Source: an uncultured candidate division Zixibacteria bacterium
GTDB lineage: Bacteria > Zixibacteria > MSB-5A5 > GN15 > FEB-12
Length of the DNA: 64,000 nucleotides
Assembly: GCA_963806185.1 (NCBI GenBank)
Contig: CAWDXE010000001.1
Coordinates: 256,001 to 320,000, forward strand
Direction: 5' to 3'
Part shown: one piece after another, positions 23,438-34,063 of the stretch
Layout of the letters: each line of letters begins with the position of its first letter
How positions within the stretch are numbered: the first letter of the stretch is position 1
The notes under the pieces: model-generated
The model's input: only the letters and a program-made list of their open reading frames with translations
What the model was told of the DNA's origin: nothing
Databases searched by the model: none
Translations under genes and position numbers: made by a program

Positions 23438-24127
23438 CTATTTTCGCATTTTTCTTTTCATCGCGCCCGCGCCGATCATCCCGACTGCAAAGAGAGCAAG
23501 AGTAGTCGGTTCGGGCACCGGCTGGTTGGGACAGGGAGACGCAGTTACGTTGACGGTTGCGTTTGAGCCGAACGGGCAGAAGAACTTGTCCGGCACATTG
23601 TTCGGGACCATACACGGATTAATATTCCCGGCAAACACAAGTCCGGCCTTTCCGGTACTCGGTGTCAGGAACTTGTAGTCGAACAGCAGAAGCCCGTCAA
23701 TATCCCACGAGTCAAACTTCGCACTAATCCAACTGGCGCCGGCCATGAGGTCGGAGTATGACGCCTTGCGCGTGAAGCTGAAATCCGGCAACGGAGTTGG
23801 ATGTCCCGGGACGGTGAGGTTCTTCACCGTCAGAGTCCACTTCCAGTCGCTGAGCGGATCTGCGATCATCCCCTCGATGGGCGCGGTGTCGGGCGCGTAG
23901 GCGAAGTCGAAGCCGACGCCGGCGGAGACGTTGAATTTCTTGCCAGTGGCGCCGTACGACAGACGCGGATCCAGTCCGAAAGTATTGACGACATCGCCCC
24001 CTTTGTCATAGGCGGCATAGCCCCTGAAGTTACTCGCGCTGAAGGCGAAACCGAACGCCTGCGACGGGAGTCCGGTAAGGGCGACAATTCCCAGGATCAG
24101 CACTGCGCTCAGGACGCGGTGTTTCAT
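23438..24127 (-). CDS. PEP-CTERM sorting domain surface protein
   Basis: GGAGG RBS, signal peptide MKHRVLSAVLILG..., C-terminus VPEPTTLALFAVGMIGAGAMKRKMRK. Confidence 0.9.
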   Translation of the reverse strand: MKHRVLSAVLILGIVALTGLPSQAFGFAFSASNFRGYAAYDKGGDVVNTFGLDPRLSYGATGKKFNVSAGVGFDFAYAPDTAPIEGMIADPLSDWKWTLTVKNLTVPGHPTPLPDFSFTRKASYSDLMAGASWISAKFDSWDIDGLLLFDYKFLTPSTGKAGLVFAGNINPCMVPNNVPDKFFCPFGSNATVNVTASPCPNQPVPEPTTLALFAVGMIGAGAMKRKMRK

Positions 24128-24186
24128 GGTTCCTCCGATTTTTAGCGACAGGTTGACAGTTGGCATATTTATCTGGGCAGTACAGC

Positions 24187-24201
24187 GCAACCAGCGTGCC
24201 G
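24187..24201 (-). promoter_or_regulatory. sigma54 -24/-12 promoter of the PEP-CTERM gene
   Basis: Minus strand CGGCACG-CTGG-TTGC, about 60 nt upstream of the ATG. Confidence 0.75.
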
Positions 24202-26243: not shown

Positions 26244-26494
26244 CGATGCAAATATCCAAAACGGAAAGTCGGTTGACAAGTTAAAGCGAGTCAATTGAAC
26301 CAATACTGCGCCGACGGTTCATCGGGAATCTTCCATGATCATTCCAATCCACCTGACCTTAATGTATGGGCGGACGCCCATTCTCGTTACTCAAGCGGCT
26401 GACCAGCCGCAACAGTTCATCCGCGAACAACAGTAAGTCCCTTGCCCGCCAAGAGCATAGCCGGGCCGTTGAGAAACGACAGCTTCGGCACGGA

Positions 26495-26510
26495 GGGCAG
26501 GAGCCTTGCA
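26495..26510 (+). promoter_or_regulatory. Possible sigma54 promoter of the C25 peptidase gene
   Basis: GGGCAGG-AGCC-TTGCA (GG-N10-GC spacing), about 75 nt before the GTG start. Confidence 0.4.
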
Positions 26511-26584
26511 CTATTGGTGTGAAGGTTCAGGGTGAAACAGCACCTACAGGCAGGCACTGGAGGCGCGAAAGGGGAGCAAGAGAC

Positions 26585-28864
26585 GTGGTCCGAATTCTAC
26601 TGACTTTAACTTTGTTGGTCGCGACAGTCGAGGCCGAGAATCAGGCGACGTTGATGTTGTCACCCGATCTGGTCTCGGCAGATGTTTCGACGGGCACTTT
26701 CGACTACCCGAGTTTCCCCAAGATTACGGTTTCCGGTGGGCTGCGCCTGTCAGCGCAGGTTGTCTTCGTTCCGCTCAGTTCCGACCAACATGCCGACGAC
26801 GTTACGTATCAATCAACGACCGATACGCTTGGTGTTATTCCGGCAGGCAATCTGACAGACATTCCAACATCGCTCGAACCGGAACGATATGATGCGATCG
26901 TCACCCGGGCGGCGGTCAATCGCCCCGGCCAATCGGCAGTCGAAGTAATAGATGAGACGACAATAGCGGGCGAGCGATACGCCAGAGTACTGATCTTTCC
27001 GGTGTCGGTCGACGCAAATGGTTTGGTCTCCTTCAATCGAGAGGTCTCGGTTCGCGTCGGTGGCATTCTGCTGACATCTCAACAACTGCTCACTGCCGAA
27101 GCGGCTGCAAGCATCGCCACGGCGACACCCGAATTGACTTCGGGAGGCAGTGGGCCGGAATACCTGATTGTGACAACTTCAATCCTGACACCGGCTATAC
27201 AACGACTGGCCGACTTCAAAATAGCACTGGGGATTACGACCGAGGTGCGGTTGGTCGACGACATGGTCGCCGCCCAAACCGGCCGTGATACAGCCGAACG
27301 ACTGAGGGAAGCGTTGAAAGCGGCGTACCAATCGGGCACCCGGTATGTCCTGCTCGCCGGGGACGAGACGCTGCTTCCCGTCCGGTATGCCTATCCATAC
27401 ACAGTGACTCCCCCGCCGACATTTGACGAGACGCCGATCTGCGATCTTTACTTTGCCGATGTCAACGGCGATTGGAATGCCGACAATGACGATCAATGGG
27501 GCGAGCGGTACTTCGACCAGGTCGACCAGACGCCGGAGTTGATGGTGGGGCGACTTCCCTTTTCGACGCTTGTCGAAGCCGAAAACTACGTTGAAAAGCT
27601 GATTGTCTACGAGACCGATCCGGGACGCGGCAACCGGTCGTACCTCGAGAACGTGATGTTCTTCTGTTCAGATCAGATGCGCGACACGTCGTACGGCCTT
27701 CAGCACCAGTATGTCGCGGCAGGTTTTTCCGGCGAATTGTCGGTCGATACCATTACCGGGCTCGAGCAGAGCACTGGTGATGATCCGTCCCCGACAAATC
27801 TCGCGGCTCCGGAGATGGTGGGAGTACTCGACGCCGGATATGGATTCGTGAACGTGCTGGCTCACGGCGCGGCGGGGCAGTTTGCGGTAAAGACGGCCAA
27901 ATACAACACGTCGCCGAAATCGTGCATCGTGACCGATTCGACAATTCCGGGACACGGGCCGATAACCGAGCTCATGCCGAATGATTACACCGGTTTCTGG
28001 TATTCGGCGGCTTGCGACAATGGAGCCTTTGATATGGACCTTCCCCCCTACCCGTATCCATCGCCAAGTCTCGTCCAGACCCTGCTCGGACTGAGGCGTG
28101 CGGGGGCCGTGGCCATGATTGCGTACTCGCGGTACGGATGGGTGGCACTCAGTTACCTTCAACAGCGGACATTCGTTGATTCTCTGTTTGCCCATCCGGA
28201 TCGGCCGGCGATTGAAGCGTTTTATGCCGAGAAAGCTGTGCATGCGTCGTATCGCGATCTGGTATACGGCCAGAATTTCTACGGTGACCCGACGCTGCAC
28301 ATATATACGTCCGCACCGCAGCCGCTGGTCACGCAAACGCATCTGGACGGCACCGACCTGATGGTAAGGGTCGTATCCGCCGGCACGCCGGTCGCCGGAG
28401 CAAAGATCATCGTCAGTTCTAATGGCATTTGTCAGGGGCAATACATCACCGGGATGTCGGGAGAGGTCAACCTCGCTCAGAGTCTCACCGGAGCGAGTGC
28501 ATTTACGATCGCAGCAGTGAAGTCGGGGTATAGCTCGAATCTGTTAACATACATTCCGGCAATTGGCACCGACGTAGAAGGAGGTGAGGACAATTTGCCC
28601 GCGACGTTCGCGTTGTCGCAGAACTATCCCAATCCGTTTAACCCATCGACCAGTATACATTTCTCGTTGCCGACCGCCGCGCATGTGAGACTGATTGTCT
28701 ACAACGTGCTCGGGCAAGCGTTGGCAACACTGCTGGACGGCGAGCAGCGCGCGGGTGAGCACGAAGTAACGTGGGACGGGTCCACCGCGGCGAGTGGAGT
28801 CTATTATTACCGCCTTGAGGCGGGTGATTTCGTCCAGACCAAGAAGATGGTTCTGCTCAGGTAG
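26585..28864 (+). CDS. C25 (gingipain) family cysteine peptidase with T9SS-type C-terminal domain
   Basis: Signal peptide; YVLLAGD, DLYFAD, VGRLP, LAHG (His), SAACDNG (Cys), FYGDP; LSQNYPNPFNPST...KKMVLLR. Confidence 0.88.
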   Translation: MVRILLTLTLLVATVEAENQATLMLSPDLVSADVSTGTFDYPSFPKITVSGGLRLSAQVVFVPLSSDQHADDVTYQSTTDTLGVIPAGNLTDIPTSLEPERYDAIVTRAAVNRPGQSAVEVIDETTIAGERYARVLIFPVSVDANGLVSFNREVSVRVGGILLTSQQLLTAEAAASIATATPELTSGGSGPEYLIVTTSILTPAIQRLADFKIALGITTEVRLVDDMVAAQTGRDTAERLREALKAAYQSGTRYVLLAGDETLLPVRYAYPYTVTPPPTFDETPICDLYFADVNGDWNADNDDQWGERYFDQVDQTPELMVGRLPFSTLVEAENYVEKLIVYETDPGRGNRSYLENVMFFCSDQMRDTSYGLQHQYVAAGFSGELSVDTITGLEQSTGDDPSPTNLAAPEMVGVLDAGYGFVNVLAHGAAGQFAVKTAKYNTSPKSCIVTDSTIPGHGPITELMPNDYTGFWYSAACDNGAFDMDLPPYPYPSPSLVQTLLGLRRAGAVAMIAYSRYGWVALSYLQQRTFVDSLFAHPDRPAIEAFYAEKAVHASYRDLVYGQNFYGDPTLHIYTSAPQPLVTQTHLDGTDLMVRVVSAGTPVAGAKIIVSSNGICQGQYITGMSGEVNLAQSLTGASAFTIAAVKSGYSSNLLTYIPAIGTDVEGGEDNLPATFALSQNYPNPFNPSTSIHFSLPTAAHVRLIVYNVLGQALATLLDGEQRAGEHEVTWDGSTAASGVYYYRLEAGDFVQTKKMVLLR

Positions 28865-28918: not shown

Positions 28919-30688
28919 GTGCCTGGAATATTCCTCAGAGTTCGACGATCAGCGCCGACGCAATCGGCTCCGCTGGCTGCGCCACGGCCGCCGGCTTCCT
29001 CACAGCCGCTCTCCGTACAGACCATAAGTGCATCGAACTTGTCCCGACTGGACATATTGGACCATTCGGGATATCCAGTGTCGGAGTACGATACCGACAA
29101 TCATCAGCTCATCGTCGAGGGCGAGATCGTATCGCTCCAGACGATCAGCCCGGTACAAGACTTTGCAGCACTCGCCCGGATACTGCTGCATGAACCCCGG
29201 CCTGAAATCGCGGCGTTGCGCGAATGGCAGCGCAATCATACGGGCGAGTATGTTATTGCGGGTCATCGAAGGGGAAGCGATCAGTGGGTGCTGCTCACCG
29301 ATGCACTGGGTCGGTTGCCGTCATACTATCTGGTTGATGACGATGGTGTGACGATTGGGCGTGACATCCAGGCCGTCGTAGGTGGTCGCACGGCAATCGA
29401 TCGCCTGTCGTTGGCACAGTATCTATTATTCGGGTATCCAATCGGATTTCGGACACTGTTCGCCGGGATGAAGCGGGTTCCGCCGGGATCCTGTCTGATA
29501 GTTGGGGCGGAGGGACAACTGCAGATCGATCCGATATCGACGCTGAATTTGCAGGATGAGTCGTCGGAGAATTATGACGCCCAATTGGAGCGCATAGAGT
29601 CTGCGTTTGTGGCGGCATGCCAACAGCTTGGGCGGGATGAGCGACGCGTACTGGTATCGTTGAGTGGCGGGCTCGATTCGCGGAGTGTTGCCGGCGGGCT
29701 GGTGCGGGCCGGGGTGTCGTTTTCGGCGGTTACGTTTGTCACGCAAGACAATCAGACTTCGCGAGATGCCGCACGGGCAGAAGAGGTGATGAGGACGCTC
29801 GGGTTGCCATGGCAGCTCATGCAGTTGGGGCAGGCGGATGAGGCGGCGCGAGAGGAGATAATCGCCGCCAAAGCGGGGCTGGTGTATCTGGGGCAGGCGT
29901 ATGATGTCGAGTTTTTCAGGCGACTTCGCGGGGCGTTCGGCGACCAGGTTACATTTGTGTCCGGCGACGGCGGTGACAAGTGCCTGCCGTATTTGCTGCC
30001 GGCCAGGCGCCTGACCGGCATTTCGGAGCTGGTCGATTTCATTGTAGCGACGCAAACGCTGTTGTCGTTGGCCGAAGTCTCGGAGTTAACCGGAGTGGCT
30101 CAGGATGACATCAGAGCGAGCATTCGTGACACGGTCGACGCGTATCCCGAGAGTTCTCCTGACTACAAGTATTTCCGCTTCCTAATCTCCGAACGGGCAA
30201 TGCAGTGGTTGTTTGAGGGCGAGGATCGCAACCGGTATCAATTCTGGGCGACGACGCCGTGTTACCGGGAACCCTTTTTCAGTGCTGTCATGCAGTGCCC
30301 GCAACGGTTCAAGCGACGGCATCGATTGTATCGCGACTTTCTGGAGCGCCTCTCCCCTGCGCTGGCAGGTATCCCGGACGCCAATCGTGGCATGGCGCCG
30401 AGGTCGTGGAAATTTACTGCGTATCTTCAGGTGGCGGATTTGATGAAGAAGTTTCCGGGGTTGGCGGCGAAGGCACGGTCGCTGCGCAAAGGAAGGTCAA
30501 GGGCACTGACTGTCGCAGCCGATGAAGGCGGCGACAGGGCGGCCACCGGAAATCGCGAGAAGCTGGCTCAGTATGTCAATGTCGAATGTTATCAGCGATT
30601 GCTTGCGCCAGGGGCAGAAACGGGGGCGGCTGCGCGGGATCTGCTGAAGACGCTAGAGAATCTCGTCAATCGAATGGCGAGGCGATGA
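28919..30688 (+). CDS. Asparagine synthetase-related protein (N-terminus MPG, no glutaminase Cys)
   Basis: TDALGRLPSYY, RVPPGS, LSGGLDSR PP-loop, SGDGGD. Confidence 0.8.
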   Translation: MPGIFLRVRRSAPTQSAPLAAPRPPASSQPLSVQTISASNLSRLDILDHSGYPVSEYDTDNHQLIVEGEIVSLQTISPVQDFAALARILLHEPRPEIAALREWQRNHTGEYVIAGHRRGSDQWVLLTDALGRLPSYYLVDDDGVTIGRDIQAVVGGRTAIDRLSLAQYLLFGYPIGFRTLFAGMKRVPPGSCLIVGAEGQLQIDPISTLNLQDESSENYDAQLERIESAFVAACQQLGRDERRVLVSLSGGLDSRSVAGGLVRAGVSFSAVTFVTQDNQTSRDAARAEEVMRTLGLPWQLMQLGQADEAAREEIIAAKAGLVYLGQAYDVEFFRRLRGAFGDQVTFVSGDGGDKCLPYLLPARRLTGISELVDFIVATQTLLSLAEVSELTGVAQDDIRASIRDTVDAYPESSPDYKYFRFLISERAMQWLFEGEDRNRYQFWATTPCYREPFFSAVMQCPQRFKRRHRLYRDFLERLSPALAGIPDANRGMAPRSWKFTAYLQVADLMKKFPGLAAKARSLRKGRSRALTVAADEGGDRAATGNREKLAQYVNVECYQRLLAPGAETGAAARDLLKTLENLVNRMARR

Positions 30689-30708: not shown

Positions 30709-32094
30709 CTACTTATGTATCCGCTTCAGAAATTCTTCTATCTCGGGGACGCCGCCCTGGAAGATCAGGTAGCCGTTATACGGTTCGCGTTCGGTGATTT
30801 CGCCGCAAATCGGTTTGAGCATTAGCTCCGTCACCTTCGCCAGGTCATCCGTCTGTCCCAACGCCCACCCCAGCTTAATGTAGGCCACCTCGGGAAGCAT
30901 GTTCTCCAGCGGAATGATTCCCTTCGCCATGAGGTCACGGCCGGTGTCGTACACATACATGTGCACGTATCCCCAAAGGGTCTGGACCGTCATGTAGACG
31001 CAGATTCCCTTGTCGCGGGCCCGTTCAATGGCCGGATAGAGGGGCTTATTGATATGCCCGAGACCGGTGCCGGCGATAACAATGCCGCGGTATCCGTTGT
31101 CAATGAGAGCGTCGATAATGTCCGGGCGCATGGCCGGGTAGTAATAGACGATGGCGACTTTCTCTTCGAAATAGGGCAGGATGGTGACATTGCGATCTTT
31201 GCGGCGGCGATTGTAATCGTCGCGCAGCGGCGTGATCGTCTTGGTGTCAACCATTGCCAATGGTATGTCGCCGATGGTACGGAAGGTGGAGCGATACGAC
31301 GAGTGCATCTTGCGTACGCGCATGCCGCGATGCAGCAGGCCGTATTCGTCGGAAGTCGGGCCGAACATGCAGACCATCACCTCGGCGATATCCGATTCGG
31401 CGGCAGTTTTGGTGGCGTGCTGAAGATTGAGGGCGGCGTCGGATGACGGACGATCCGATGATCGCTGCGAACCGACCATGACAATCGGCACGGGAGAATT
31501 CTGGACCATGAAGCCGAGGGCAGCCGCGGTATGGTGCATGGTGTCGGTGCCGTGGCCGATGACGATACCATCCACGCCTTTTTCGATCTCGCGACCGATG
31601 GCGATGGCCAGCGCCTTGTACTGTTCCGGCCCCATGTTTTCGCTGAAGACGGCAAATAATTTCTCGGTGCTCAGATTGCAGATGTCGGCCAGTTCGGGGA
31701 CGGCGCCGTACAGCTCGCCCGGTGAAAAGGCAGGAATAACGGCGCCGGTACGGTAATCGAGACGCGAGGCGATCGTTCCACCGGTGCCGAGCAATTTGAC
31801 ATAGGGCTTTCCCTTGGAGATCGGGAATTCTTTTTCGGGGATTTTGTAGTGGGCTTCCTTGTACCCCAGCTCTTTCATGTCGGTGATGGTGTCAACGGCG
31901 ATGCCGACGTTGTACCCGGAGGCGAGCTTGATGACAATATGCTGATCGTCGTCGTTCTCTGAGCGCGGCAGCAGGATCCCGCGGAATTCGCCCCGGGTTG
32001 TCGACACGGCCGTATCGCCCCAGACGCGGGCGCTGAATTTGGTGAGCACGCCGAGCGAGGCGCCCTTATACCCCTTAAATGCTTCAGCGGCCAT
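30709..32094 (-). CDS. gatD: Glu-tRNA(Gln) amidotransferase subunit D (archaeal type)
   Basis: GatD N-domain (GILLPR...IKLASGYNVGI), GTGGTIASRLDYRTGAV, HGTDTM, GSQRSSDRPSSDA, RKMHSSYRSTF, MLPEVAYIKL. Confidence 0.92.
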   Translation of the reverse strand: MAAEAFKGYKGASLGVLTKFSARVWGDTAVSTTRGEFRGILLPRSENDDDQHIVIKLASGYNVGIAVDTITDMKELGYKEAHYKIPEKEFPISKGKPYVKLLGTGGTIASRLDYRTGAVIPAFSPGELYGAVPELADICNLSTEKLFAVFSENMGPEQYKALAIAIGREIEKGVDGIVIGHGTDTMHHTAAALGFMVQNSPVPIVMVGSQRSSDRPSSDAALNLQHATKTAAESDIAEVMVCMFGPTSDEYGLLHRGMRVRKMHSSYRSTFRTIGDIPLAMVDTKTITPLRDDYNRRRKDRNVTILPYFEEKVAIVYYYPAMRPDIIDALIDNGYRGIVIAGTGLGHINKPLYPAIERARDKGICVYMTVQTLWGYVHMYVYDTGRDLMAKGIIPLENMLPEVAYIKLGWALGQTDDLAKVTELMLKPICGEITEREPYNGYLIFQGGVPEIEEFLKRIHK

Positions 32095-34063
32095 TGAGCA
32101 CCGTCCTTTCAATCGTCTGCGAGAGTTCCTCGAGACAGACGTTGCCGATAGCCATTTTGCGCAGATTGGCCATGATCCAGCGGACCTCGGCGAGCGGGTC
32201 CTTCGACCGGCGGATGCCGTCGAACTTTCGGCGCAGGGCCGGCACAAAGACCTGGAGCTGTTCCATAGTTTGCGGTTTGAATTCCAGGATGATCAGGATT
32301 GATTCAAAATCCATGTGGGGATGAGCATACAGAATCTTGAGCATTTCCTTGATGATTTCATCAAACAAACGACGCTGTTTGACAAAGCGGAACAGCTCGT
32401 ACACCTGTTCGTAGCGGAACCCGTTGGATTTCCGGTGCACACCCTCAAGGCGGCGCAAGGTGTGTCCGATCACTGAACCGACAAATACGGGATCCTCGTC
32501 GAAGTCTATTACGATTCGCTCAAGCAAACCGGCCAGATTTCGTTTGAAGATATACCGGTGGGTGTCGGCGGGGACGCGCCAATCGCTGAGTTGCTTCATG
32601 CGGGCGTCGATAGCCATCGGCAAGGCCCGCCCGGCGTCTTCGATCATCGGTTGCGTTATAGAAATAGGAGCGGAGTCGGTGTCCGGGTACATGCGATCCG
32701 GGCCCGGCAATACTCGCTCGAAGACATTGACCCCGCTGGGCAGAGCCTTGCGCGTTTCGCCGGGAACGCCGACCATGGCGAGGCGGCAGCGTTCGTCAAT
32801 AGTCTCGACAGCGGTTTTGACATCGTCCTTCGGCCCCCAGAATACGACCAGTCCGTCGTTGTCGGTAGTGCCGAGCAGTTTGCGAATGAAACGCAAGTCA
32901 TCTTCGGCAAGCGCGGATTCGTCGCCGTCAGCATAGACCATATTCGGCTTTTCGATACAGGCGATTACTTTCAGACGATCCGATAATTCGTCGGCGAAAG
33001 TACGTCCGGGCTGGGTAAAGTGGGAGAGAATTCCGGCGAACTGCGGCAGATTGACCGCGACCGTAGCCATGCCCTCGGCGGTGGCGTTCTTCATCGCATC
33101 AGGCAGCGAGACAAAGCGGGAAGCATCAATCTCCCGCGATGACAACTGCCAGGTTTCCTTCTTGGGAATCAGCTTCTGCAATAGATCGCGGATCATGAGC
33201 AGCGATTTTTGGCGAAAGGCCTCGTTGTGCACGAGTTCCGGAATCCATCGGATGCGGGAAACACCTTTGATTTCAACGCGGGTGCCGCCGGCGACACTCA
33301 CGTTGACATCTTCGCGGCCTGCGCCAATACCGGTGCGGACTTTGCCGGAGCTGCGAGCTACATAGCGAAGGTACTGGGCGGCCTCGGCCACTTCATCGGG
33401 GGTGGTCATATCCGGATAGGTCACCATCTCGATCAGCGGCATGCCGAGGCGATCAGTAGTATAGATCCGCCAGTGGCCTTGATCGGAGACTTCGCGGCAG
33501 GCATCTTCCTCGATGGAGAGTTGGATGAGTCGAACGGTCTTGTGGGTAAGCGGAATACTTCCCTCGATAGAAATAATTCCGGTTCGCTGGAAACCAGTCG
33601 GGATGCTGCCGTCGAGATATTGCTTTCGCGTAATGTGCAGTTCGCCAACAACTTTCATGCCGAGCAAGAGGGCGATCTCCAGCGCAATCCCCAAGGCCTC
33701 GCGATTGAGCGCAAACGGCGGCGTGTCATCAATATCATACGTGCAGGCCGTTTCATAACGAAGGCGGTAGATGATATTCTTCCGCGTTTTGAATTCCATC
33801 AGGGCAGTACCGTCATACTCACCTAATTCCGACAGAGTTGGGCGCATATGGCGGATGATTTCAGCGTCGTATTCGTCGTGCTGATACCGTCCGGCAGGAC
33901 ACCGGCAGAACAGTTTCTTCTGAGTCTTTAGTTGTTGATGGATTTCCAGTCCGGATTTGAACCCGAGGGCAGCATAAGTGTCCGGAGTAGCTTGAGATCG
34001 AGGGATATATCCGACTTCCGCCTTCGTTCGGGCGTACGTGGATTTACGTTCAGAGACCGACAT
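32084..34063 (-). CDS. gatE: Glu-tRNA(Gln) amidotransferase subunit E (archaeal type)
   Basis: GLEIHQQL, MRPTLSELGEYD, RKQYLDGSIPTGFQRT, DRLGMPLIE, GTRVEIKGV, GAD-like insertion, RVLPGPDRMYPDTD; overlaps gatD. Confidence 0.92.
   Translation of the reverse strand: MSVSERKSTYARTKAEVGYIPRSQATPDTYAALGFKSGLEIHQQLKTQKKLFCRCPAGRYQHDEYDAEIIRHMRPTLSELGEYDGTALMEFKTRKNIIYRLRYETACTYDIDDTPPFALNREALGIALEIALLLGMKVVGELHITRKQYLDGSIPTGFQRTGIISIEGSIPLTHKTVRLIQLSIEEDACREVSDQGHWRIYTTDRLGMPLIEMVTYPDMTTPDEVAEAAQYLRYVARSSGKVRTGIGAGREDVNVSVAGGTRVEIKGVSRIRWIPELVHNEAFRQKSLLMIRDLLQKLIPKKETWQLSSREIDASRFVSLPDAMKNATAEGMATVAVNLPQFAGILSHFTQPGRTFADELSDRLKVIACIEKPNMVYADGDESALAEDDLRFIRKLLGTTDNDGLVVFWGPKDDVKTAVETIDERCRLAMVGVPGETRKALPSGVNVFERVLPGPDRMYPDTDSAPISITQPMIEDAGRALPMAIDARMKQLSDWRVPADTHRYIFKRNLAGLLERIVIDFDEDPVFVGSVIGHTLRRLEGVHRKSNGFRYEQVYELFRFVKQRRLFDEIIKEMLKILYAHPHMDFESILIILEFKPQTMEQLQVFVPALRRKFDGIRRSKDPLAEVRWIMANLRKMAIGNVCLEELSQTIERTVLNGR

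Follow-up and report, generated by a model that had tools for sequence, protein, structure and literature searches.

An archaeal-type GatDE amidotransferase of Zixibacteria belongs to a large, mostly bacterial clade whose gene content and synteny point to asparagine

The window analysed here, a stretch of 64,000 nucleotides from the genome of an uncultured Zixibacteria bacterium, carries two overlapping genes on the reverse strand. The gatE gene (32,084 to 34,063) encodes a kinase/amidase subunit of 659 residues made up of the GatB/GatE catalytic cradle, a GatE insertion domain, a helical domain and a YqeY-like tail, while gatD (30,709 to 32,094) encodes an asparaginase-type, ammonia-releasing subunit of 461 residues with the GatD N-terminal domain (PF18195). 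The gatE stop and the gatD start overlap by 11 nucleotides (32,084 to 32,094, reverse strand), an arrangement suggestive of translational coupling. Both proteins passed the curated NCBIfam equivalog cut-offs of the archaeal families: GatE scored 410.9 bits with TIGR00134 (cut-off 319.55) and 466 bits with NF003107 (cut-off 456), and GatD scored 515 bits with TIGR02153 (cut-off 324) and 513.5 bits with NF003217 (cut-off 310). Six GatB models gave only 44 to 126 bits on GatE, all far below their cut-offs of 315 to 680, and GatD fell below the cut-offs of the type II asparaginase and AnsA models. GatD also exceeded the cut-off of TIGR00519, a model of the wider type I asparaginase subfamily (380.5 versus 260.5), as expected for a GatD. 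The closest solved structures by sequence were archaeal for both subunits (2d6f_C and 1zq1_C for GatE, 2d6f_A and 1zq1_A for GatD), and the AlphaFold2 model of GatE (mean pLDDT 93.6) had 1zq1_C and 2d6f_D as its top Foldseek matches.

The initial annotation had described an intact, overlapping gatE-gatD pair with catalytic motifs, and alignment bore this out. The GatE metal ligands H42, E185 and E212 (33,428 to 33,940, reverse strand; alignment to 2d6f_C) correspond to His15, Glu157 and Glu184 of Methanothermobacter thermautotrophicus GatE (PMC2330236). They are conserved in 143, 145 and 145 of 146 clade GatEs, respectively. The GatD catalytic residues T107, T183, D184 and K262 (31,309 to 31,776, reverse strand; alignment to 2d6f_A), which we take to be T101, T177, D178 and K254 in archaeal numbering, were kept in at least 95% of 84 GatD sequences. 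The GatE-specific insertion domain (about residues 306 to 432; 32,768 to 33,148, reverse strand; alignment to 2d6f and 1zq1) is also kept, with an occupancy of 0.93 across clade representatives. The helical domain and YqeY-like tail (about residues 476 to 659; 32,087 to 32,638, reverse strand) are full length in the model, with pLDDT mostly above 90, and all clade members except the three shortest have at least 185 residues after the RMYP motif. These domains have diverged, since the Pfam GAD and GatB_Yqey models gave no score on the window GatE. PF02637, the YqeY tail, was recorded in only 4 of the best 120 closest proteins versus all 120 proteins listed by a Heimdall-centred search. Identity among representatives was lower in the tail of the clade than in that of the archaeal-type set (0.196 versus 0.302), while the catalytic cradle was more conserved (0.586 versus 0.501).

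Two of the bacterial neighbours reported for the pair were confirmed, rfaD matching TIGR02197 (364 bits) and an alginate-export-type barrel matching PF13372. The composition of gatE (GC 0.555, GC3 0.656) and gatD (GC 0.579, GC3 0.747) is host-like and in line with that of the neighbours (GC 0.549 to 0.587, GC3 0.646 to 0.736). Genes flanking gatED in the kin genomes G027 and G011 have orthologues about 8 to 11 kb from gatD in the window genome, and the contig measures 1.1 Mb. The window genome also has bacterial GluRS, AspRS, GatCAB and tmRNA, its gatA, gatB and gatC being separate genes located away from gatED. An assembly chimera, archaeal contamination or a mis-annotated GatB plus asparaginase is extremely improbable and was ruled out: many frameshifts occur in the assembly and the sequencing runs were too thin on this stretch for a check of read continuity (two DNA runs, share 0.06), but model scores, composition, synteny and contig size all speak against it, and gatE is present in 138 of 201 genomes of the phylum and in complete chromosomes, such as that of Oceanirhabdus. 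Promoter and terminator scans gave counts at chance level.

The suspicion that more bacteria would hold such genes proved right. Of 200 other genomes of the host phylum, 137 carried gatE, as did 72 of the 161 genomes in an independent Bacteroidales set, and the carriers include cultured Clostridium and Oceanirhabdus strains. In the GatE phylogeny, rooted on canonical archaeal-type GatE, the bacterial sequences formed one clade that was sister to the Heimdallarchaeia-type GatE (99* SH-aLRT). With six bacterial GatB sequences as the outgroup the root fell among Asgard-type sequences with weak support, the node uniting the Heimdall group and the clade receiving 91, unstarred; the direction of transfer therefore depends on the canonical archaeal-type rooting. 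The window GatDE belongs to an old and large clade, found mostly in bacteria, whose members have also passed from one bacterial phylum to another. The inter-domain transfer proposed in the initial annotation holds insofar as a true GatDE of archaeal descent lies in a bacterial chromosome, but it was not a one-off event in this genome. The clade may go back to a single transfer from an Asgard, Heimdallarchaeia-type lineage, which would have been followed by an episode of rapid change in the cradle and then by spread among anaerobic bacterial phyla. In a set of 80 cross-phylum loci, 73 held both gatD and gatE; the gene overlap and the joint presence or absence of the two genes imply that GatD and GatE are partners.

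Comparison with the archaeal enzymes of M. thermautotrophicus (2D6F) and Pyrococcus abyssi (1ZQ1) showed the same two subunits, folds, domains, metal ligands and GatD catalytic residues, at about 33% identity between the window GatE and the solved archaeal GatEs. In contrast, the clade has a bacterial host, usually lives beside GlnRS, and has lost the equivalent of archaeal Gln240, a residue that we take to have a role in reading the tRNA acceptor stem. This position is S269 in the window GatE (33,257 to 33,259, reverse strand; by alignment); of the canonical archaeal-type GatEs, 74 of 76 have Gln here, as do all 29 of the Heimdall group, and at least 136 of 146 clade GatEs have Ala, Ser, Pro or Asp. 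Basic or polar residues conserved in archaea are replaced in the window GatE at T244, S269 and G541. The Heimdallarchaeia or Asgard type (cluster of TET29438.1; locus L142) has a GatD with 51% identity to that of the window and with the same C-terminal extension, while its GatE, unlike that of the clade, keeps Gln240, the archaeal loop Arg and the archaeal-type tail; the Asgard gene neighbourhoods come from three short contigs. The clade also carries 27 near-invariant substitutions of its own in the GatE cradle and insertion domain. Many of these residues are already present in Asgard-type GatEs, whose function presumably remains that of Gln-tRNA synthesis (14 to 18 of the 27 in the Heimdall group), so the signature alone is no proof of a new substrate.

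The Gln-tRNA(Gln) role implied by the initial annotation fared poorly and is doubtful as the job of GatDE here. GlnRS was present in 125 of 137 gatE-positive versus 45 of 63 gatE-negative phylum genomes and in 44 of 50 cross-phylum gatE genomes; gatE thus accompanies GlnRS rather than excluding it. GatB was found in 11 of the 12 gatE-positive genomes that lack GlnRS, and in 27 of the 30 GlnRS-negative phylum genomes overall, where it suffices. The window genome itself has GatCAB and no GlnRS was found in its 82%-complete assembly. Both of its tRNA(Gln) genes have the bacterial U1-A72 pair instead of A1-U72, the pair recognised by the archaeal GatDE (tRNAs were scanned in this genome), and five GluRS that we scored, all below the archaeal cut-off, were of bacterial type, which rejects a co-transferred archaeal-type GluRS partner. 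GatDE might still act as a Glu-tRNA(Gln) amidotransferase, a back-up or proofreader beside GlnRS or GatCAB relaxed to accept U1-A72, although we regard this as unlikely. It would agree with the retention of all catalytic residues and of the GluRS-docking insertion domain, with the loss of the Gln240 equivalent, which would suit U1-A72, with the lack of GlnRS in the window assembly, with the location of gatE no more than about 4 kb from glnS in three genomes of family f7 (G005, G048 and G113), and with genome G174 (94% complete), in which gatE was found but neither GlnRS nor GatB. However, it is not needed for glutamine, as glutamine-synthetase-family genes (PF00120) occurred in five of five genomes checked, which also ruled out a tRNA-dependent route to glutamine as a substitute for glutamine synthetase, and it leaves unexplained the exclusion of asnA in two phyla and the chromosomal slot common to the two genes. 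A role as a stand-in for GatCAB was not seen in the phylum, gatB being present in 75 of 137 gatE-positive and 37 of 63 gatE-negative genomes; it was present in only 15 of 50 cross-phylum gatE genomes.

Genomes with gatE seldom carried AsnA (PF03590). In the phylum sample, AsnA was found in 10 of 137 gatE-positive versus 32 of 63 gatE-negative genomes, and in the Bacteroidales in 10 of 72 versus 49 of 89 (Fisher odds ratios of 0.076 and 0.13, respectively, with p-values that overstate the significance because kin are not independent). Among the ten genera with mixed gatE status, four showed the swap (g26, g47, g67 and g70), two the opposite (g33 and g63) and four were uninformative. In three sister lineages, asnA occupies the chromosomal slot of gatE: gatE-gatD of G189 and asnA of G095 have common flanking genes, three of them 88 to 90% identical; the flanks of G157 and G076 are 86 to 92% identical on one side, with a small common gene on the other; and the flanks of G067 and G085 (gatE) are 50 to 75% identical to those of G080 and G130 (asnA). 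No common slot was seen in the other two of the five sister comparisons (g67 and g70). The asnA copy of locus L047 passes TIGR00669 (311 versus 292.8), and AsnA motifs are common to 14 copies. gatD was absent from five of five asnA-bearing, gatE-negative genomes tested, including family f14, where gatD is not linked to gatE. Both gatE and asnA were kept in 10 phylum genomes, 10 Bacteroidales, Clostridium tagluense and Oceanirhabdus, and asnA adjoins gatD in four genomes (G147, G182, G175 and the Bacteroidales G312).

AsnB-family genes were found in 36 of 72 gatE-positive Bacteroidales and in 42 of 54 gatE-positive, gatB-negative phylum genomes tested, counts that may take in many polysaccharide amidotransferases. 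Genomes without AsnA and any AsnB-family gene made up 30 of 72 gatE-positive versus 15 of 89 gatE-negative Bacteroidales; among 80 gatB-negative phylum genomes tested the difference was weak (12 of 54 versus 3 of 26). In genus g30, all four genomes (two of them single-contig, 95 to 96% complete) have gatE and AsnRS, and no asnA, AsnB over the cut-off or gatB was found. The window genome has AsnRS as well as GatCAB, and neither AsnA nor an AsnB over the cut-off was found in it. Replacement of a missing AsnRS by GatDE was ruled out by the presence of AsnRS in 75 of the 80 gatB-negative genomes. We assume that one position of the AspRS anticodon domain is His in many non-discriminating enzymes. 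At this marker, every one of the 15 gatE-positive genomes aligned had Leu or Met, and 7 of the 13 gatE-negative ones had His; sister pairs did not differ in it, and it tracked neither gatE nor GatB and was uninformative (G194, which misaligned, G070 and G130 were left out). A full-text search of the literature (main texts) gave no source for the marker or for the role of Gln240. The tRNA(Asn) of the window genome has U1-A72, a feature of tRNA-dependent asparagine synthesis that carries little weight, as the pair is also present in 77 of 89 genera without GatCAB (PMC4206432, Table 2).

Gene content and synteny point to asparagine and not to Gln-tRNA(Gln): because the pair swaps chromosomal positions with asnA in close relatives, asparagine is the likely product instead of the glutamine made on tRNA in archaea. 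We predict that GatDE of this clade has probably taken on a new function, the synthesis of asparagine either on Asp-tRNA(Asn) or from free aspartate, and stands in for the ammonia-dependent synthetase AsnA. By known GatDE chemistry, GatD would release ammonia from an amide donor, which would have to be glutamine if the product is asparagine, the ammonia would pass through an inter-subunit tunnel, and GatE would phosphorylate a side-chain carboxyl with ATP and then amidate it; gene content suggests that this carboxyl would be aspartyl and not glutamyl. In the window genome, GatCAB would make Gln-tRNA(Gln) while GatDE would supply asparagine. The 20 sample genomes with both genes, the frequency of AsnB-family genes and the lack of an AspRS change tracking gatE speak against the asparagine reading.

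We tentatively favour Asp-tRNA(Asn), which a relaxed AspRS would make, as the acceptor, since the domains that bind tRNA are still full length. The AspRS residues, the coexistence of gatE with gatB and the retained insertion domain would argue against this form; in archaeal GatE that domain blocks a complex with the non-discriminating ND-AspRS (PMC2943598). Close behind comes the tRNA-independent amidation of free aspartate, for which the GatB/GatE kinase fold would have given rise to an asparagine synthetase of a third kind, a possibility that we hold with less conviction. It would suit a swap with AsnA, the maker of free asparagine, without a matching change of AspRS, the lack of exclusion of GatB, the changes at T244, S269 and G541, and the faster divergence and scarcer PF02637 record of the tail, but in nearly all members the helical and tail domains persist, at about 190 residues and with a confident fold, and archaeal GatDE has no glutaminase activity without its tRNA substrate (PMC2330236). 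A scenario that we consider equally speculative is that an Asgard-derived archaeal translation enzyme was taken up once and rebuilt as an asparagine synthetase of a third class, independent of tRNA and combining the GatE kinase fold with the GatD glutaminase. This enzyme would replace AsnA, one gene for the other, in roughly two thirds of Zixibacteria and almost half of the Bacteroidales sampled. Another amidation or nitrogen role, for instance in ammonia assimilation or on an acceptor that is carrier-bound or non-translational, appears improbable; the asnA pattern would then reflect a common regulon or niche, or antagonism between the asparaginase-type subunit and AsnA. GatD is far more conserved across phyla than GatE (69 to 88% versus 53 to 66% identity to the window proteins), AsnB-family genes are widespread in gatE genomes, and no conserved neighbour besides gatD was found in the 80 loci, all of which would fit such a role; however, the analysis turned up neither a partner gene nor a candidate acceptor, gatD and gatE stay or disappear together even when unlinked, and the adjacency of gatD and asnA in four genomes speaks against strict antagonism. 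No tRNA(Gln) or tRNA(Asn) gene was present in the 60 loci scanned. A T-box riboswitch was sought upstream of clostridial gatE because it would have named the amino acid; none was found in 10 loci, where the only T-box was about 4 kb distant and on the opposite strand.

The supply of asparagine on tRNA has a precedent in the GatCAB of Thermus, Deinococcus and Bdellovibrio, which acts as an Asp-tRNA(Asn) amidotransferase (PMC2330236, PMC4206432). The role proposed for GatDE is the same, tRNA-dependent supply where AsnA and AsnB are missing and AsnRS and GlnRS are present, but GatDE has an asparaginase-fold glutaminase instead of an amidase and a GatE insertion domain, and gatE and gatB are not exclusive in the phylum. 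AsnA (TIGR00669) appears interchangeable with GatDE by distribution and chromosomal position, while its fold and activation chemistry are unrelated: AsnA adenylates its substrate with an AspRS-like fold and GatE phosphorylates.

Reviews call GatDE archaea-only, and our full-text search (main texts) gave no paper describing a bacterial GatDE or a link of GatDE to asparagine. A large bacterial clade with cultured Clostridium and Oceanirhabdus members overturns that statement, whatever the function of the enzyme. If the asparagine role is true, thousands of proteins annotated as Glu-tRNA(Gln) amidotransferases carry the wrong assignment, and many of the anaerobes regarded as asparagine auxotrophs possess a hidden route. 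GatDE, which its insertion domain was believed to tie to Glu-tRNA(Gln), would then have changed its substrate. The clade would also provide a naturally occurring GatE that is independent of the A1-U72 determinant, and an example of an enzyme of the translation family passing from Asgard archaea to bacteria. Within it, the GatEs of the sub-clade to which the window belongs have an N-terminal extension of about 30 residues.

The two genes lie where the initial annotation had placed an overlapping pair, gatE at 32084-34063 (minus strand, 659 aa) and gatD at 30709-32094 (minus strand, 461 aa), with an overlap of 11 nt. The results of our profile searches showed that both subunits exceed the curated cut-offs of the archaeal equivalog models, with 515 (cut-off 324) and 513.5 (cut-off 310) for GatD and 410.9 (cut-off 319.55) and 466 (cut-off 456) for GatE, in agreement with the archaeal-type identity first proposed. 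The alternative that GatE is really GatB was ruled out, since GatB models gave 126 bits at most and the AlphaFold2 model of GatE (mean pLDDT 93.6, input alignment of 90 sequences) matched 1zq1_C and 2d6f_D first, with GatB chains ranking below. The closest solved structures for the two proteins are 2D6F and 1ZQ1, and the pair belongs to the GatD and GatE families by sequence and fold. The catalytic motifs were all mapped by alignment: those of GatD are T107, T183, D184 and K262, the counterparts of the archaeal catalytic residues, and the metal ligands of GatE are H42, E185 and E212, aligned to the residues given in PMC2330236. Judged by its residues, this GatDE is intact, catalytically complete and strongly conserved.

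An assembly artefact, such as a chimeric contig, is extremely improbable as the explanation of these genes in a bacterial contig. The genome (G000; 3.65 Mb, 82% complete, 0.86% contaminated) is rich in frameshifts, which split gatB, asnS, lysS, one gltX and an enoyl-CoA hydratase gene and which we read as probable assembly errors because the housekeeping gene lysS is among them. The contig, however, is 1.1 Mb long, the GC and GC3 of gatE and gatD are like those of neighbouring genes, and in G000 orthologues of the genes that flank the pair in relatives G027 and G011 lie some 8-11 kb away from gatD. Most of the closest named GatE proteins belong to Zixibacteria, and the host is therefore likely a member of that phylum. 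The bacterial GatDE of G000 is real. Its gatC is on a different contig from gatA-gatB.

The suspicion that other bacteria carry such genes proved correct. Of 201 host-phylum genomes, G000 among them, 138 were found to carry gatE, as were 72 of 161 Bacteroidales in a sample drawn around a genome (G243) itself picked as a gatE carrier. When GTDB contigs were scanned with six patterns derived from the window protein, 480 stretches came out, 440 of them confirmed, and among the best 80 loci are records with the titles Zixibacteria, Bacteroidales, Clostridium (C. tagluense, Oceanirhabdus), Anaerolineae, Chloroflexia, Aminicenantes and Acidoferrum. Identity to the window proteins in these 80 loci was 69-88% for GatD and 53-66% for GatE; gatD was present in 73 of them, the sequence of six of the other seven runs out no more than about 320 bases from the gatE stop codon, and no third gene travelling with the pair was found in their neighbourhoods. 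In four host-phylum families gatD is unlinked or more distant, yet present (5/5 tested). NCBI already names such proteins GatE in bacterial MAGs, whereas GatDE is called archaea-only in PMC2811023, PMC8762117, PMC9499178 and PMC2330236 and is assigned to archaea in PMC7373986; our literature search, with subscription journals mostly outside it, found no paper on bacterial or Asgard GatDE.

GatE trees were made with FastTree on 231 sequences and with three IQ-TREE quick runs on subsets (68, 54 and 50 rows), many rows being unnamed representatives whose domain was deduced from tree position. All named bacterial GatE proteins formed one clade (SH-aLRT 99-100 in FastTree and the IQ-TREE subsets), whose named members are all bacterial except UCE36696.1, labelled Thermoplasmata, in a small near-basal sub-clade. 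With canonical archaeal-type GatE as root, the sister of this clade consists mostly of Heimdallarchaeota/Asgard-labelled proteins (support 99); when rooted with GatB the rooting was weak and the node joining the two had a support of 91. The window GatD shares 51% identity and its C-terminal extension with a GatD encoded beside a Heimdall/Asgard-type gatE. These trees sustain the inter-domain transfer claimed initially, likely from Asgard to bacteria. The stem of the window GatE's sub-clade is long, whereas the branches that link Zixibacteria, Clostridium, Bacteroidales and Aminicenantes within it are short (support 100), which implies later transfer between bacterial phyla. The sub-clade of UCE36696.1, with 14 similar proteins, has all 27 signature residues of the bacterial clade and lacks Gln240, with a tail still of archaeal type; it would represent an intermediate donor or else a transfer back. 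In G217, titled Calditrichales, GatE and GluRS (L064, L137) cluster with or resemble clostridial ones, so that the record may be mislabelled or misbinned.

The initial annotation also implied a role in Gln-tRNA(Gln) formation. In the 82% complete G000, gatA, gatB, gatC and asnS are present together with a bacterial aspS and two gltX of bacterial type; glnS, asnA and AsnB over the cut-off were not found. GlnRS and GatB are expected to be mutually exclusive. Among the 200 other host-phylum genomes, the 137 gatE-positive ones have GlnRS and GatB in 64, GlnRS only in 61, GatB only in 11 and neither in 1, versus 21, 24, 16 and 2 of the 63 gatE-negative ones. Exclusion is seen, with GatB in 27 of 30 GlnRS-negative genomes; gatE goes with GlnRS and is independent of GatB. 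Cross-phylum carriers (50 of the best 80 loci) have GlnRS in 44 and GatB in 15. Both tRNA(Gln) genes and the tRNA(Asn) of G000 have U1-A72, whereas archaeal GatDE reads A1-U72 (PMC2330236). In three defining features, host, A1-U72 and status as sole route, the pair departs from the archaeal Glu-tRNA(Gln) system. GatDE is redundant for Gln-tRNA and is not needed for that job, and a back-up Glu-tRNA(Gln) amidotransferase is unlikely; no bacterium with both routes was known at the date of PMC4206432.

In family f7 (G005:C34, G048:C39, G113:C28), gatE is about 1-4 kb from glnS and divergent. One of the two GluRS genes of G000 (L002:1489-2949 on C7; L001:1002-2490 on C1) is host-like (GC 0.55), with HIGH-type and KMSKS-type motifs that seem degenerate; the second is low in GC (0.494), adjoins a MetRS-like gene and has an orthologue as the sole GluRS of GlnRS-negative G027. 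The native GluRS looks replaced, perhaps in connection with GlnRS loss.

Comparison of gatE with asnA, the ammonia-dependent asparagine synthetase gene, showed that asnA was present in 10/137 gatE-positive versus 32/63 gatE-negative host-phylum genomes, and in 10/72 versus 49/89 Bacteroidales genomes. Because kin are not independent, sister genomes were compared. Ten genera were mixed for gatE, with a swap with asnA in four, the contrary in two and four uninformative; in both contrary genera the gatE-negative genome, also without asnA, is fragmented or 89% complete. Five sister comparisons addressed position. In genus g26, gatE-gatD (G189) and asnA (G095) lie in the same orientation between corresponding flanking genes, and in genus g47 (G157 and G076) and family f14 (G067 and G085 versus G080 and G130) the slot is common with opposite orientation; no common slot was found in g67 (contig end) and g70. 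The slot asnA copies are about 375 aa and have AsnA motifs in common, the one scored passing TIGR00669, and gatD was absent along with gatE in 5/5 asnA-bearing genomes tested. When both occur, asnA adjoins gatD in G147, G182, G175 and Bacteroidales G312, and is not adjacent in G129, G041 and G075. These positions are most simply explained if the two genes came together repeatedly and one or the other was later lost, as is typical of redundant genes. By distribution and position, GatDE appears interchangeable with asnA. Neither AsnA nor any AsnB-family gene was found in 30/72 gatE carriers versus 15/89 non-carriers of Bacteroidales, and all four genomes of genus g30 have gatE and AsnRS with no other asparagine route found.

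GatDE of the clade probably gives asparagine, formed perhaps on Asp-tRNA(Asn) or, only slightly less likely, on free aspartate. GatD would supply ammonia, and GatE would phosphorylate the aspartyl carboxyl with ATP and then amidate it. Against this role, gatE and asnA are retained together in 20 sampled genomes and in C. tagluense and Oceanirhabdus, and AsnB-family genes occur in 42 of 54 gatE-positive, gatB-negative host-phylum genomes (80 of 88 gatB-negative genomes tested), although, given that they are also found together with asnA and frequently in several copies, many of these are probably not asparagine synthetases. No AspRS change tracking gatE was seen in the aligned sequences, and no T-box that would name the amino acid was found upstream of gatE in 10 clostridial loci. 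Another nitrogen role is improbable. The insertion domain of archaeal GatE is reported to stop ND-AspRS binding (PMC2943598).

At 27 positions the 146 aligned clade members of GatE carry a near-invariant residue that sets them apart from 76 canonical archaeal-type sequences; most of these substitutions lie in the cradle, which holds the active site, and 14-18 are already present in the Heimdall group. The equivalent of Gln240, Gln in 74/76 canonical and 29/29 Heimdall sequences, is lost in the clade (S269 in the window GatE), and Arg/Lys at position 541 of the helical domain is Gly in 85/146 members, a change beyond the Heimdall group; we take both residues to be tRNA contacts. Position 244, in a loop adjoining tRNA's first base pair (PMC2811023), changed from Arg to Thr (Thr in 90/146, Arg in 41/146), also beyond the Heimdall group. 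Conservation in 50%-cluster representatives was 0.586 in the clade versus 0.501 in archaeal-type GatE for the cradle, and 0.196 versus 0.302 for the tail. The helical and tail domains, which anchor tRNA and read its D-loop (PMC4810234), are nevertheless kept in length across the clade and in fold in the window model. Substrate recognition has thus changed, while tRNA may still be the carrier.

The AsnA form usual in the host phylum is a distinct subtype (L047:10512-11648 and 13 further loci), about 375 aa long and extended at the N-terminus; in G312, too, it lies beside gatD. Five genomes without GatB or GatE (L162-L166), all with asnA and AsnRS, have His at one AspRS position, presumably a non-discriminating marker. 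Convergent with gatD, and with its end 20 bases from the gatD stop, is a 589-aa asparagine-synthetase-like gene (28919-30688, plus strand; PF00733 and TIGR01536 weak, far under the TIGR cut-off); relatives do not conserve it as a neighbour. Also near gatD, 23438-24190 (minus strand) encodes a PEP-CTERM-like protein and 26366-28864 (plus strand) a peptidase C25 protein whose C-terminal domain is T9SS-like.
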